DNA of 64,000 nucleotides. Source: an uncultured Collinsella sp. (GTDB taxonomy: Bacteria > Actinomycetota > Coriobacteriia > Coriobacteriales > Coriobacteriaceae). Shown in pieces: positions 52,281-57,332 of the stretch. Numbering within the stretch: position 1 is the first letter of the stretch; each line of letters starts with the position of its first letter. Under the pieces are notes generated by a model that saw nothing but the letters and a program-made list of their open reading frames with translations, did not search any database and was not told the origin of the DNA. The DNA is taken from contig URCS01000001.1 in assembly GCA_900546455.1 (NCBI GenBank), positions 3,040 through 67,039 of the forward strand, written 5' to 3'. The position numbers were made by a program, and so were the translations under genes.

Positions 52281-52980
52281 TTACCCAACACCCACGCCAT
52301 TTCGATCTTCTGGGCCTTCAACGCCACGTCCCGATAAGCATCCGGGCATCGGAATGACCTCGTCGCAAGCCGCAAGCATCTCTTCGTCATGAGTGACAAC
52401 AATTACAATATGGTCTCTCTTAACCTCATGAAGCAATTTAATTAGCGCGCTCCGGCTCTTCGCATCAAGCGCTGAAGTTGACTCAAGAAACAACATGACG
52501 TCCGGCGATTTCAACATCTGCCGCACAATTGCGATGTTCTGCTTCTCCCCGCCGGACACCCCTCCTTTCTTGCTGCCAAGCATCGCTGCCGCCCCGTTCT
52601 CCGCAGCGGCAATCATTTTGTCTAACCCCAATATGGCAAGCATCCGATTCAGTTTGTCGGCCTCGAAATCATCAGAAAGCAGCGTAAGATTATCGAGGAT
52701 CGTCCCCCCAACAATAGGGGGCTCTTGCTCCGTAATGCCAACTCGGCACCGCCGCAATGCGTATCGGTCGATGCGACGCTGTGATACCCCGTTGTAGAGG
52801 ACGGCCCCTTCCGTGTTATCTGGATATAGACCCAATATCACTGACAGCAGCGAGCTCTTCCCCGAGCCATTTCTTCTTGCTTACTGTTTTTCTTATATTG
52901 TAACGATTTTCGATAAGAGGAAAGATTACTCCATGACGCGCAAGCCCGAACTCTAAGCGTTTCCCATCAGCATTGCCCAT
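52281..52980 (-). pseudogene. Disrupted ABC transporter ATP-binding domain (frameshift and deletion before Walker A; foreign C-terminal end)
   Basis: The 186-aa ORF has the signature VSGGEKQ, Walker B VMLFLESTSALD and H-loop VTHD, but its Walker A (NGSGKSSLLSV) lies behind a stop codon or in another frame. The upstream 54-codon ORF (MGNADGKRLEF...) is out of frame. The tail after DEVIPM is GC-rich non-ABC sequence. Confidence 0.7.
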
Positions 52981-54586
52981 TTTTCGGATCGAAATCCAAA
53001 TCCAGCTTCCTATCGCATGCTGAAATCAAATCCTGATCATGGCTTACAACAAGAATTAGCTGATCGAAGGGATTTCGATGAATATACTCCGTGAACTCCC
53101 GACGGCTTTCTTCATCTAAATCGTTCGTTGGTTCATCGAACACAAGCACTTCCGGCTGCCTGCGAAGTGCTGCGAATATCCTTAGCTTTCGATACTCTCC
53201 ACCAGAAAGGTCTCTACAATTCTTGCCTTTTAACGATTCGACGGTTCGATAGAAACTCGGCACAAGCTCTCGGAGGTTTTCGCTCGATCCCCGAATCGAC
53301 GTCCTCTCAAGGTAATTCTCCACCGTTTCGTTCGGAATAAAGAGCTTTTGCGGGCACACCGCAAACAGGTCCCGTCGGATCGTCTCCATATCGAGCTCTT
53401 CATATGGCACCGACCCCAAAGCCCGATGTCCCCCAGCAGAATATAGTCCAAGGAGCACCTTCAGAAACGTGCTTTTTCCGCATCCGTTCGGCCCGGTAAT
53501 GGCATAGGTTTTTCCTTCCTCCACCTCCACGGAGAGGTCGCGGTATAAGTAGGGCTTTCCCGCGTATCGGTACGCGATGTTGGACAACGATATGCTCTCC
53601 ACGTGCCCAACCGTGAGGGTGCCGCGGTCCTCGGCGTCCTCCGTCAGAGCCCCCAATCGGTCGAACGAGGCCCTTGCGTCCTGATACGATTTGAAATAAT
53701 TCAAAAAATACTTGAAGCATCCGAACGCCATCGAGTAATACGAGTTCACCATTGTGAACTCGCCTAAGCTCATTCTTCCGCTCAATATTTCCATCCCGGA
53801 GATCACGAGCAGTGCCCCCCGAAACACAGACGAGATCAGGCCGTCGCTTGATGTGGCCAGATTCGAGACCCTACTTGCTTTCATGTAAATCGGGTAGTAC
53901 CCCTCGAATACCCCTTTGAGCGTCCGAGCGCTCTGGTTATATGCGCCATCGCACTTAATGTCAAACAACTGCGACAGCTCGCCGCTCACGGACGCGAAAA
54001 GCTTACTCAAACCCTCCTTGTTCGCAAGCGAACTGTTGTACAACGGCTTTTTCAACGCCCTGAATAAAATGAAGTACGCAACAAGCGAACATGCACTTAA
54101 CACCAGGAACACCGGATTAATCGAAAACAGGATGATGCATATCAACACAACCAGAACGATGTTAAGCCCGATCGTCAGGAAGTTGTTCACGACAAACGAT
54201 GACACCGCATTCGAATCCGCATACACCCTCTGCGTTGTATAGGATGGATCCGCCTGCTCCCCCTTTTCCAGGGGCCCCCGTTCAAACGACTCACACGTGG
54301 TCCCCATCAGTCTCGTCGTCATCTCCAAGATGACGCGCGATACGTTCACACCCATCGCATACGACATGAAGGAGGCCGATATCCCTATGCCCGCAACAAA
54401 GGCCGCAAACCACACGACGCGAGATGGATCCCTATTCGTCACGAGAAAGTCTACAAACCCACCGTTTAAGGCGGGCATGACGCACGAGAGAGCAAAATTC
54501 ACCAGCATGAGAATCACGAAAAGCCGTGACCCTTTACACCGAAACAACTCGTGAACCGTCTTCTTAAACATGCCAGCTCCCATCAA
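52967..54586 (-). CDS. ABC exporter, fused permease-ATPase half-transporter (no peptidase domain)
   Basis: N-terminal six-TM-type region, Walker A GPNGCGKST, signature LSGGEYRK, Walker B VLVFDEPTNDLD. Start could be 54583 or 54571. Confidence 0.9.
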   Translation of the reverse strand: MMGAGMFKKTVHELFRCKGSRLFVILMLVNFALSCVMPALNGGFVDFLVTNRDPSRVVWFAAFVAGIGISASFMSYAMGVNVSRVILEMTTRLMGTTCESFERGPLEKGEQADPSYTTQRVYADSNAVSSFVVNNFLTIGLNIVLVVLICIILFSINPVFLVLSACSLVAYFILFRALKKPLYNSSLANKEGLSKLFASVSGELSQLFDIKCDGAYNQSARTLKGVFEGYYPIYMKASRVSNLATSSDGLISSVFRGALLVISGMEILSGRMSLGEFTMVNSYYSMAFGCFKYFLNYFKSYQDARASFDRLGALTEDAEDRGTLTVGHVESISLSNIAYRYAGKPYLYRDLSVEVEEGKTYAITGPNGCGKSTFLKVLLGLYSAGGHRALGSVPYEELDMETIRRDLFAVCPQKLFIPNETVENYLERTSIRGSSENLRELVPSFYRTVESLKGKNCRDLSGGEYRKLRIFAALRRQPEVLVFDEPTNDLDEESRREFTEYIHRNPFDQLILVVSHDQDLISACDRKLDLDFDPKNGQC

Positions 54587-54667
54587 GCGGCCTTTTATCC
54601 AAAACTGAATTTGCTCGCCGCTTAATCGCTCCCATATATCCCTTGTTGTTAATCCTTGCTCAAGACA

Positions 54668-55027
54668 TTATCTCGGGTTGCGGTGCCCAGGATTCCATTT
54701 CACCTTTATATACATACGAATAAGCCCCCTATTTGCATAGGCAAGCGCGGCGATTATAACAGCAGCCACCATCAGACCGAGAATAGCCCTTTTGTCCGGA
54801 AAAAGGGACGAGAGAAAAAGGCATATTGCGGAGAAAACTATAGACGCCCCCACCACTCGGTTTGCGCCTAGAGACTCGGCCGTCCGCTTTGCCTCCTCTA
54901 AACGCTCTCCCGATAGCAATGACATTCCGGCAAGCAATCCCGTGAGCTTGCCTCGATATATCATTATTCCGAACAACAGCAGCAGGCATGACCCCACCAT
55001 TGAAACCACAACGTCCGACATCGCCAT
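54668..55027 (-). CDS. Small polytopic membrane protein (DUF3784/SdpI-type look; possible immunity or accessory protein)
   Basis: Three hydrophobic helices with a central LLAGMSLLSGERLEEAKR loop. It is upstream of, and co-oriented with, the ABC exporter. Start ATG at 55027 or 55021. The family assignment is tentative. Confidence 0.55.
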   Translation of the reverse strand: MAMSDVVVSMVGSCLLLLFGIMIYRGKLTGLLAGMSLLSGERLEEAKRTAESLGANRVVGASIVFSAICLFLSSLFPDKRAILGLMVAAVIIAALAYANRGLIRMYIKVKWNPGHRNPR

Positions 55028-56091: not shown

Positions 56092-57137
56092 TGAGCATGC
56101 CGGCAATAATCGGAGCGCCCCACAGCGTTGCGCTCGACATTACAAACAAATGCAACCTTCGTTGTCTACACTGCTTCAACAACAGTGGAGAAAACGATGT
56201 CGTCGCGAACGAATTATCCGACAACGAAGTCCTCGAACTCGTCGACTCGATTTGTCAAATGCACCCCTTTAGCTTCTGCTTCTGCGGAGGCGAGACCCTC
56301 CTGCGAAAGGATCTTGTCATCGAGTCCTTGCGGCGGCTCAGCGCATCTGGCGTCAAATGCAACCTCGTGTCAAACGGTCTGCTCGCAAACTCAAATACTT
56401 TGCATGAGCTCGAACGCGCCGGTTTAAACGGCATACAGTTTAGCCTCGATGGCCTACGCGATTCTCACGAACATATGCGAGGACTCTCGGGATTATACGA
56501 CCGGGTGCTCGACGCCATCGATATCACGCTGAACGAAACCTCACTGCACCTTTCAATTGCCTTTTGTCCGACATCGTTCAATGTCGACGATTTCAAACCA
56601 GTTTGCACGATGCTTCGAGACAAGCTGAAATCGTCGGGTAGAACTGACCGAATTGACCTTAGAGTTCAGCCGCTCATGCTCCTCGGTAGAGCCCGAAGAA
56701 ACCGCACGATTCGCCCTTCGAATAATCAATACCGTCGGCTAGTCAACACGATCAATGACCTTCGATACGATCCGGACTATCGAGGCTATTTCATGCTTGA
56801 GTGGGGCGACCCCATCGACCACTTGGTCAGATTCCCTCAACTGCAAATGCAATTTGACCAAGTGGCCATCCACGCCAATGGCGATATCGTCGCATCCCCC
56901 TATATACCTCTCATCATCGGAAACGTTCGCAAACACAGCCTTCAGGAATACTACGATGCCGGAATGGCAACCGTTTGGGATAAGCCCGTTGTTACCGCGT
57001 TGGCCAATCGTATGCACTCGATTGACGAGATGGAAGAGATCTCATCGTTGATTGCAGACATCAATATGGACGGCGACCTCTATATCGACCTGATCGACGA
57101 TGATCTAGGCGACCTGAGCGTCCTGTCACAATTCTAA
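56091..57137 (+). CDS. Radical SAM peptide-maturase-like enzyme with a cysteine-free SPASM-like C-terminal region
   Basis: LDITNKCNLRCLHC (CX3CX2C at residues 21-28). TAATG overlap with the upstream gene. The C-terminal GDIVASPYIPLIIGNVRKHSLQEYY resembles the SPASM/twitch core, but the last Cys in the protein is C172 of 348. Confidence 0.9.
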   Translation: MSMPAIIGAPHSVALDITNKCNLRCLHCFNNSGENDVVANELSDNEVLELVDSICQMHPFSFCFCGGETLLRKDLVIESLRRLSASGVKCNLVSNGLLANSNTLHELERAGLNGIQFSLDGLRDSHEHMRGLSGLYDRVLDAIDITLNETSLHLSIAFCPTSFNVDDFKPVCTMLRDKLKSSGRTDRIDLRVQPLMLLGRARRNRTIRPSNNQYRRLVNTINDLRYDPDYRGYFMLEWGDPIDHLVRFPQLQMQFDQVAIHANGDIVASPYIPLIIGNVRKHSLQEYYDAGMATVWDKPVVTALANRMHSIDEMEEISSLIADINMDGDLYIDLIDDDLGDLSVLSQF

Positions 57138-57149
57138 GGAGATGTTCCC

Positions 57150-57332
57150 ATGTATGAGACCCCAGAAGTAGAGAAGATGGATTCCAAAACCGGCCCCGTT
57201 CCCGTTGTGGTCAACTTTGCAGCCGTCGTGGATAACGTAGTCGCAGCCGTCTATGATGCCGTCGTTGCGGCCTACGCATTCTGGTACTCGGCAGACAACG
57301 ACGGCACCGGGACGAGTGCAGCACAGAACTAG
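57150..57332 (+). CDS. Candidate RiPP precursor peptide (60 aa, Cys-free, Val/Ala-rich)
   Basis: MYETPEVEKMDSKTGPVPVVVNFAAVVDNVVAAVYDAVVAAYAFWYSADNDGTGTSAAQN. An AAGGAG RBS lies 8 nt upstream, and the start is 12 nt after the radical SAM stop. Confidence 0.6.
   Translation: MYETPEVEKMDSKTGPVPVVVNFAAVVDNVVAAVYDAVVAAYAFWYSADNDGTGTSAAQN

Follow-up and report, generated by a model that had tools for sequence, protein, structure and literature searches.

What is made by a radical S-adenosylmethionine (SAM) enzyme that is encoded between a peptide-recognition protein and a 60-residue peptide without a single cysteine, and does this product belong to any class described so far? The question is raised by a locus in a 64,000-nucleotide stretch of DNA from an uncultured Collinsella sp. 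(GenBank assembly GCA_900546455.1, contig URCS01000001.1, positions 3,040 to 67,039 of the forward strand), hereafter called the window and numbered from its own first letter. A preliminary description had read this locus as a cassette for a peptide that is synthesized on ribosomes and then modified post-translationally (RiPP), made up of a radical SAM (rSAM) maturase, a partner protein carrying a RiPP recognition element (RRE), and export and immunity functions. That an rSAM-dependent RiPP is encoded here is supported by small open reading frames (ORFs) with a conserved leader motif, which lie beside homologs of the enzyme across phyla. The locus is in our judgment quite probably an intact member of a widespread and so far undescribed family of rSAM RiPP gene clusters.

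The core genes and the precursor peptide

Three genes on the plus strand form the core of the cassette. A fusion protein of 297 aa (55198-56091), made of an RRE and a domain resembling GCN5-related N-acetyltransferases (GNATs), was identified from a PqqD match, an AlphaFold2 model and Foldseek comparisons. It is followed by the 348-aa rSAM enzyme (56091-57137), which has a Radical_SAM match and belongs to the SPASM/twitch lineage, and then by the 60-aa precursor peptide (57150-57332), recognized by its ribosome-binding site, by a leader profile and by a comparison of alleles. All three ORFs are full length in the window, with good ribosome-binding sites and translational coupling. Direct reading places an AAAGGAG (55187-55193) 4 nt 5′ of the ATG of the fusion gene, whose TAA overlaps the ATG of the rSAM gene to give TAATG at 56089-56093. 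The peptide ORF begins 12 nt past the rSAM stop, behind an AAGGAG, just as had been reported; this AAGGAG (57136-57141) overlaps the stop. The ORF map and direct sequence reading likewise bear out the positions first given for the six genes, for the TAATG overlap and the AAGGAG site, and for a decayed second ATPase domain.

The peptide can be divided, with approximate regions and boundaries, into a leader MYETPEVEKMDSKTGP, a hydrophobic core VPVVVNFAAVVDNVVAAVYDAVVAAYAFWY and an acidic/polar tail SADNDGTGTSAAQN; it was also parsed as a leader MYETPEVEKM, a core VVVNFAAVVDNVVAAVYDAVVAAYAFWY and a polar tail. Its translation contains neither Cys nor YG, in agreement with the preliminary description. 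A pair of Collinsella alleles differs by 7 synonymous codon changes (over 42 synonymous sites) and by 3 non-synonymous ones (over 138 such sites), and the hydrophobic core differs only synonymously. The resulting dN/dS of about 0.13 indicates that the ORF is under purifying selection.

How far does this peptide reach beyond Collinsella? With a leader profile built without Collinsella sequences, the window peptide ORF ranks first among 1586 six-frame segments, at an E-value of 0.096 that is marginal when taken alone. Searching with the leader profile yielded 61 distinct small ORFs beside homologous enzymes; the matches of at least 9 bits are all on the rSAM strand, and most of them directly flank the rSAM or RRE-GNAT genes. 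Leader-motif ORFs flank rSAM homologs in Actinomycetota, Bacillota, Caldisericota, WOR-3 and a Bacteroides-labelled metagenome-assembled genome (MAG). The preliminary description had made its reading depend on conservation of the 60-aa ORF beside homologous rSAM genes, and same-strand leader-motif ORFs are indeed found there.

The family leader reads Y-x-x-P-x-[IVL]-x-x-[LMVA]-[GN], often with a further G, its Pro being invariant and its Tyr nearly so. A Gly/acid-rich linker, often ending in E-P, leads from it to a variable core. The cores are net acidic (19% Val, 14% Ala, 1.8% Lys+Arg and 0.3% Cys), and every one of them has a 19-residue window with a mean hydropathy of 1.25-3.3, hydrophobic enough to span a membrane. 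Most contain Trp or Tyr patches, such as VWQT[QE], NWL, TEWVW, YAY or, in the window peptide, AFWY, and many start with a Trp/Tyr patch; the window peptide fits the family pattern except that it has no N-terminal Trp patch. In one subfamily the core is bracketed by conserved polar motifs (TE...[ST]Q[IV]D[VIT]TP), and among 32 aligned cores no position is conserved family-wide. Pfam and NCBIfam scans of eleven family peptides, the window peptide included, gave no family and no leader of the NHLP/Nif11 type.

Spread of the family

The rSAM family matched 589 protein clusters in a word-indexed search, and relatives of the enzyme occupy at least 513 genome loci (in species-representative genomes) and at least 539 metagenome loci. 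They come from Collinsella, Clostridia, Paenibacillus, Gorillibacterium, Cellulosilyticum, Acidaminobacteraceae, Caldisericota, WOR-3 and the Bacteroides-labelled MAG. The window enzyme itself is 100% identical to proteins of the Collinsella aerofaciens group, and occurs in identical form in at least eight other genomes.

For counting, 46 loci sharing less than 80% rSAM identity were taken as representative. The RRE-GNAT gene (about 290 aa) adjoins the rSAM gene in 35 of the 46, the remainder being mostly short contigs, and a same-strand leader-motif peptide is present in at least 27. In three loci the rSAM and RRE-GNAT proteins are fused in a single ORF (L080 5956-7899, L096 2956-4680 and L122 3010-4833); through these fusions BLAST clustering of the neighbors merged the two genes, and it also missed small membrane proteins. 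In Collinsella and Bacillota the RRE-GNAT gene comes first and the rSAM gene second, an order that is reversed in Caldisericota and WOR-3.

Some members lie in particular surroundings. On three metagenome contigs with the family member P0039 (L085-L087), the module consists of a 483-aa protein of unknown family, an ATP-binding cassette (ABC) protein, RRE-GNAT, rSAM, a 58-aa peptide and a 104-aa protein. It adjoins a ParE toxin gene and a DUF6290 gene, and its flanks are partly repeated on the same contig; these neighbors and repeats suggest that the module is mobile or lies on a plasmid. In Clostridium felsineum the copy is carried by a 330-kb replicon.

The radical SAM enzyme

The enzyme matches Radical_SAM (PF04055) at E 2.5e-17 and carries its cluster motif, CNLRCLHC, at residues 21-28. 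In an alignment of 17 members with 41-65% identity to the window protein, the motifs CNLRCLHC, FCFCGGE, RxQPLM..GR and WGDP.DH are invariant; a further motif, ANGD..x.Y.P...GN, is conserved, with invariant core residues. The AlphaFold2 model (pLDDT 81.9) has SkfB, PqqE, BlsE, DesII and SuiB as its nearest Foldseek neighbors, with a probability of 1.0 for SkfB, PqqE and SuiB. SkfB is also close by profile (E 1.7e-23; query-normalized TM 0.63), and MoaA, viperin and EpeE are near by profile or structure comparison. These neighbors place the enzyme in the SPASM/twitch lineage, and one cluster is predicted for it.

The CxxxCxxC and GGE motifs and the partial TIM barrel of radical SAM enzymes are all present, and the ligands of auxiliary [4Fe-4S] clusters are missing. 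The window enzyme has no Cys in its C-terminal 124 residues and no C-terminal Cys is conserved in the family, so that the lack of auxiliary-cluster cysteines first noticed in this one maturase extends to its whole family. Alignments of its relatives to SPASM families nevertheless extend to residue ~297, and several Bacillota relatives keep C-x9-G-x4-S in place of the twitch signature C-x9-15-G-x4-C. The C-terminal domain is thus best described as a relic of a twitch/SPASM domain. Apart from the cluster triad, the only invariant Cys in the family are C63 and C65, which form a CxC beside the GGE; the corresponding positions are T/R/D and T/F in SkfB, MoaA, CteB and BlsE. Judging from strand geometry, C63 and C65 should face the interior of the barrel, beside the SAM-binding GGE motif.

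None of the NCBIfam equivalog models is approached: the best match of the window enzyme scores 101 bits against a cut-off of 425, and the best of its relatives 132 against 500. For the window rSAM, PqqE reaches 62.9 bits (cut-off 381), MftC 58.6 (cut-off 265), StsB 74 (cut-off 625) and WgkB 54 (cut-off 650). PapB is not among the matches listed for this enzyme, and gives 68-82 bits in relatives against a cut-off of 340. The same distance from equivalog cut-offs holds for the RRE protein and the peptide, which bears out the earlier statement that the parts match no known family.

The RRE-GNAT-like partner

The partner protein combines an RRE (residues ~17-106) with a divergent GNAT fold (residues ~120-292). 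PqqD (PF05402) matches residues 40-102 at E 1.3e-8, and the AlphaFold2 model (pLDDT 82.9) shows strands at 17-21, 26-30 and 34-38, then helices at 51-59, 66-76 and 82-98. Foldseek matches the C-terminal ~180 residues with a probability of 1.0 to SpeG, RimL, RimJ, MccE and PAT, at a target-normalized TM of 0.5-0.71, mostly 0.6-0.71. Model and fold comparison therefore support the fusion of an RRE to a GNAT-like domain proposed beforehand, with the qualification that the acetyl-CoA loop signature is absent throughout the family.

At the positions of the pyrophosphate loop Q/R-x-x-G-x-G/A (222-229), 122 aligned members have no conserved Gly, Arg or Gln, and often carry Glu or Asp. The family profile reaches SpeG at only E 0.03, and the acetyl-CoA loop of SpeG, YQGKGLA, falls opposite ‘dlleevl’. 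PqqD is matched by 116 of these 122 members and the GNAT Pfam model Acetyltransf_4 by two; R177 and E280 are nearly invariant in the GNAT-like domain. Since the loop residues are unconserved and GNAT models rarely match, the alignments suggest a GNAT fold that has probably lost the use of acetyl-CoA, although an unusual acyl donor is also possible. An active canonical acetyltransferase was rejected as the default reading on account of the missing loop signature. Word-indexed searches with this protein returned only close relatives and five distant ones, so that an exhaustive hidden Markov model search was needed; it gave 327 cluster representatives at E≤1e-10, nearly all of 270-300 aa and of the same architecture.

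Comparison with known systems

Where does such a system belong? Sactipeptides and ranthipeptides can be set aside, the peptide having no Cys, the family cores only 0.3% of it and the maturase no auxiliary-cluster Cys motif. Streptides, ryptides, triceptides and spliceotides were rejected as well, for no K..W, R-Y, aromatic-x-x or YG position is conserved in the 32 aligned cores. The exclusions made in the preliminary description for the window peptide (sacti- or ranthipeptide, streptide- or ryptide-like peptide, spliced peptide) therefore all stand. PQQ and mycofactocin fail both on scores below the equivalog cut-offs and on the hypervariable cores.

SkfB, PqqE, SuiB and CteB share with the window enzyme the CxxxCxxC, the GGE, a beta-hairpin and helices after the barrel and, as we infer here, dependence on an RRE. 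The window system differs from theirs in its unconserved auxiliary-cluster Cys and in a Cys-free substrate with no conserved donor-acceptor pair.

The leader has its closest counterpart elsewhere. PqqD-like lasso RREs (B1) bind a YxxPxL leader motif, and the family leader has the Y, the P and the aliphatic residue at the same spacing, often with G at +9, together with a PqqD-type recognition domain. In lasso peptides this motif is conserved at positions -17 to -12 (PMC10368454). Unlike lasso peptides, however, the family lacks the Thr at -2 and a macrolactam acceptor pattern, and the lasso class was rejected despite its leader motif since the lasso cyclase and the B2 protease are absent from the window locus and from the related loci with gene tables.

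Two classes that contain epimerized peptides share features of substrate and product. Epipeptides and proteusins also rely on a ribosomal Val/Ile/Ala-rich substrate, an ABC exporter in the operon and an expected membrane-active product. In proteusin epimerases the radical SAM cluster is the only one, and a critical cysteine is used by both known types of epimerase (PMC8326336). The window enzyme resembles the proteusin epimerases in its single predicted cluster, and EpeE is among its structural neighbors; EpeE has two clusters, whereas one is predicted here. Unlike in both classes, the candidate Cys stand beside the GGE rather than at C223 or C372, and the RRE is on a separate GNAT-like protein. 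Neither class was retained: the epipeptide (YydF/YydG) model TIGR04078 is not among the best 25 of the 69 matches listed for 56091-57137, and a proteusin (PoyD-type) leader of the NHLP/Nif11 type is absent.

As for the partner protein, it shares with SpeG, RimL/RimJ, MccE and MdnD the fold of its C-terminal ~180 residues, with a weak profile alignment to SpeG. It stands apart from these GNATs by its RRE fusion, by always having an rSAM partner and by the absence of the acetyl-CoA loop signature in 122 members. Hydrophobic bacteriocin systems of the SDP/SdpI type have in common with the family SdpI/DUF1648 proteins, bacterial PH-domain proteins, ABC exporters and a hydrophobic peptide, but the family has no homology to SdpC (a single match at E 0.83) and is rSAM-dependent.

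No Pfam or NCBIfam model covers the rSAM enzyme, the RRE-GNAT partner or the peptide family. No description of any of the three was found in the open-access PMC and bioRxiv literature, an absence that is no proof, and a targeted reading of the RRE-Finder update and of the rSAM-RiPP compendium gave none either. Members with a PqqD neighbor are probably already present in large rSAM-RiPP compendia as uncharacterized nodes.

Export and accessory genes

The minus strand of the cassette carries genes that would serve export and protection. A 539-aa ABC half-transporter (52967-54586, minus strand), with a transmembrane domain followed by a nucleotide-binding domain (NBD), was recognized from its ABC_membrane match (E 1.8e-13) and its ABC_tran match (E 3.6e-21). 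A C39 peptidase domain is missing from it, the best NCBIfam match starting at profile position 147, past the peptidase domain. By analogy this half-transporter is the probable exporter of the peptide, and homologous exporters adjoin the rSAM gene in 21 of the 46 representative loci. Next to it lies a decayed second ABC ATPase domain (52281-52980, minus strand). Its 186-aa ORF, 52281-52841, has no in-frame Walker A and matches ABC_tran only over profile positions 30-136; NCBIfam matches align it only to the C-terminal ~165 residues of exporters of this type. A degenerate Walker-A-like stretch, GEELAAVSDIGSISR, is found in the other frame, in an overlapping ORF (52816-52980), so that the decay of this second NBD, already noted in the preliminary description, is clear.

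A small multi-pass membrane protein of 132 aa (54668-55066, minus strand) resembles DUF3784, the Pfam match (E 3.5e-5, 24.4 bits) lying below the cut-off of 28.1. It is kept at 82-99% identity beside the cassette in Collinsella loci, decayed ones included, and is a candidate immunity or accessory protein. Between it and the fusion gene, direct reading gives an AT-rich divergent region of 131 bp (55067-55197), matching the ~130 bp first reported. This region presumably holds the promoters of both operons, although a consensus promoter scan found nothing within it. Promoter and terminator consensus scans were uninformative, with 3 matches where 5.4 were expected from shuffled sequence, and 13 where 9.3 were expected.

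A third membrane protein, multi-pass and of 217 aa (58897-59550, minus strand), matches DUF1648 at E 9e-13. It is possibly a member of the cassette, as an SdpI-like immunity protein, by analogy with the small DUF1648 proteins in homologous operons of Clostridium felsineum, Paenibacillus, Gorillibacterium and a Clostridia MAG. The gene is still present in Collinsella loci that have no second cassette (see below), for example L037. In Caldisericum (L080), which has three leader-motif ORFs, the gene for a full SdpI-family protein is placed between the first two precursor genes. Related loci also encode a bacterial PH-domain membrane protein (15 loci), pairs of ABC-2-type permease and ATPase, an M16 peptidase, discrete C39 peptidases and a YhfC-family protease. 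Such an accessory set is usual for secreted membrane-active antimicrobial peptides, and it suggests a membrane-active, bacteriocin-like product. Of the export and immunity functions first proposed, both are thus plausible by analogy with related loci, while immunity through the DUF3784-like protein is argued from its position.

A B12-binding rSAM gene was also seen in three representative loci (L061 4723-6135 and two others), where it may add C-methylation.

A possible pathway and its rivals

How might these parts work together? The PqqD-type RRE of the 297-aa protein would bind the 60-aa precursor at its Y-x-x-P-x-[IVL] leader, as is suggested by the RRE domain, the leader motif, the gene fusions and the gene adjacency. 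This protein would form a complex with the rSAM enzyme, to which adjacency in 35 of the 46 loci and the three fusions point, and would present to it the hydrophobic, acidic, Cys-free core. Because the acetyl-CoA loop signature is missing, the GNAT-like domain is more likely to be a scaffold or core-binding module than an acetyltransferase. A reaction that needs no extra electron acceptor would be expected of an enzyme of SPASM/twitch descent in which the auxiliary-cluster ligands are unconserved. Hydrogen would be abstracted from aliphatic residues and then returned from the invariant CxC beside the GGE, a family-specific motif and a candidate hydrogen donor, and the outcome would be L-to-D epimerization, as in PoyD and EpeE. 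As no acceptor residue is conserved and there is no auxiliary cluster, the simplest proposal is that aliphatic residues undergo a redox-neutral reaction; epimerization itself, our leading guess, is put forward only tentatively, and the share of our expectation that neither it nor a crosslink takes up goes to other chemistry. The product would be exported by the divergently encoded ABC exporter and might be membrane-active and bacteriocin-like, with the small membrane proteins protecting the producer. We thus take the system to work as an RRE-dependent rSAM RiPP pathway, which would be a new RiPP class if its chemistry proves distinct.

The same system could instead install an unconventional crosslink that ties an aromatic to an aliphatic residue by a C-C or C-O bond, with the rSAM cluster taking the electron back. 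Streptide, triceptides, darobactin and rotapeptides offer precedents; the enzymes nearest to it by both sequence and fold (SkfB, SuiB, PqqE, CteB) are SPASM/twitch maturases that form crosslinks; most cores have Trp/Tyr patches, like the AFWY of the window peptide; and the polar motifs at both core ends of one subfamily would suit such a bond. Yet the family as a whole conserves neither an aromatic nor an acceptor position, and the enzymes have no conserved auxiliary-cluster ligands, which to our knowledge all characterized crosslinking peptide maturases of this lineage keep. We regard a crosslink as unlikely. Slightly less likely still is an active GNAT-like domain that acylates the peptide, either by capping its N-terminus once the leader is gone, in the manner of MdnD in microviridins, or by attaching a lipid, with or instead of the rSAM step. 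The strong fold match to RimL, RimJ, the S5-alanine acetyltransferase 3igr and MccE, the near invariance of R177 and E280 and the two members that still score with Acetyltransf_4 fit an acyltransferase, but 120 of the 122 members have no GNAT Pfam match, and the pyrophosphate-loop positions, often Glu or Asp, show no conserved Gly, Arg or Gln. Might the product even be a peptide-derived redox cofactor, like PQQ (PqqA/D/E) or mycofactocin (MftA/B/C)? The PqqD-type domain does sit on a protein separate from a SPASM-lineage rSAM enzyme, as in PqqD/PqqE and MftB/MftC. With hypervariable cores that have no conserved reactive residue, PqqE and MftC scores far under their cut-offs, no partner dehydrogenases seen, and exporters, C39 peptidases and SdpI-type genes as companions of the system, this is very improbable.

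Several points weigh against an rSAM-modified, exported antimicrobial peptide, and they are best considered together. That the peptide is modified is read from sequence, and the chemistry is a guess. We know of no precedent for hydrogen donors among Cys beside the GGE motif, C223 of EpeE and C372 of PoyD being elsewhere in the sequence. Six Bacillota members (P0085, P0091, P0092, P0101, P0107 and P0110) have a CxxxC just ahead of the conserved ANGD hairpin and, except for P0107, one later C-terminal Cys; Collinsella members have none of these. Some Bacillota members may therefore still bind a second cluster, which would make this a family of single-cluster enzymes and of enzymes with a residual second metal site. 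The ORFs and Pfam matches of the window locus include no leader protease, and the Collinsella leader is without the GG present in many relatives. An anionic hydrophobic peptide would be atypical for a bacteriocin, and the DUF3784-like protein is a candidate for immunity by virtue of its position.

A further objection comes from other Collinsella loci. Some 40 of 58 evaluable Collinsella loci share one deletion, in which the RRE-GNAT gene and rSAM residues 1-74, with the cluster motif, are gone. The deletion joins the DUF3784-like gene straight to rSAM residue 75 (L016-L040, L060-L069, L148-L153 and others). In five loci the RRE-GNAT protein is missing its N-terminal 219 residues, several more carry disrupted genes, and nine are clearly intact; the window carries the intact form. 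Collinsella aerofaciens MSK.1.11 (L004) is taken as a strain with the intact allele, although its RRE-GNAT match splits near residue 21-24. The decayed loci keep the peptide ORF, which is 93-100% identical in those with the shared deletion, the DUF3784-like gene and mostly the ABC gene. Since the enzymes were lost and the peptide was kept, either the peptide needs no enzymes or these copies are recent relics; their retention could reflect recent decay, a cheater-like keeping of immunity and export, or a role for the unmodified peptide.

Is the window cassette itself then a non-functional relic, or its small ORF an unmodified membrane protein linked to the enzymes only by history? The loss of maturase genes from most Collinsella copies that retain the peptide, DUF3784-like and ABC genes, the decayed second NBD, and the low G+C of the region (48-54% against about 60%), with its look of a foreign island, would all fit. 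Against this stand the three full-length plus-strand ORFs with their good ribosome-binding sites and translational coupling, the enzyme's 100% identity to that of at least eight other genomes, and the leader motif and RRE that co-vary in presence across phyla. A relic is in our view improbable.

A paralogous second system also occurs in Collinsella (L041-L059; for example L057, in the same genome as L006). Its rSAM is 49%, its RRE-GNAT protein 26% and its ABC exporter 35% identical, and all its genes are on one strand, including those for a 67-aa peptide, MYEKPVVDNM...ETWFDMYYIVWGANVAVGV..., and then an unrelated 113-aa membrane protein.

If the window cassette is the functional member of an rSAM RiPP family that we take it to be, what would it add? 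Possibly, though less likely than not, it represents a new RiPP class, in which a SPASM-derived rSAM enzyme without auxiliary clusters works only when complexed with an RRE-pseudo-GNAT scaffold, its substrates being acidic, Val/Ala-rich peptides that resemble transmembrane segments. Multiple L-to-D epimerizations by the active-site CxC might then yield channel formers like gramicidin or polytheonamide in anaerobes of the gut and the environment, unless the chemistry is one not yet met in RiPPs. With hundreds of members in several phyla, the family is an open target for enzyme discovery. A peptide maturase of SPASM lineage without auxiliary clusters is a natural test of what these clusters contribute. 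The RRE-pseudo-GNAT fusion provides a handle for genome mining, and possibly a case of the GNAT fold reused for peptide handling. Finally, as strains of Collinsella, a common human gut genus, differ in having intact or decayed maturase genes, antagonism between producers and non-producers can be compared directly.

Genomic setting

The cassette region has a G+C content of 48-54%, against ~60% in the rest of the window. It belongs to a stretch of ~11.7 kb (51600-63270), mostly of low G+C (46-54%), that carries both this cassette and a second rSAM cassette, and that is interrupted at ~57400-58900 by a host-like segment of ~60% G+C. The stretch is flanked by the gene for pyruvate phosphate dikinase (48784-51561) and that for its regulatory kinase/pyrophosphorylase (63275-63985), two genes that usually adjoin each other. 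Its low G+C and its position between two usual neighbors suggest an inserted island. Scans of this island for tRNA genes and Rfam families were empty, with no such element at the borders.

A non-coding stretch with a run of ten C (57541-57550) separates the peptide gene from a 169-aa ORF (57914-58423, minus strand) of host-like G+C, without a family match. The second cassette itself (59707-62658, plus strand) begins with a 246-aa protein that has an Asn/Ala-rich repeat region and a C-terminal DUF5969 domain. Its rSAM enzyme (60444-61523) matches the YydG/EpeE epimerase model TIGR04078 over its N-terminal half, with 96.5 bits against a cut-off of 300, and is followed by an overlapping gene for a 397-aa SAM-methyltransferase-like protein.

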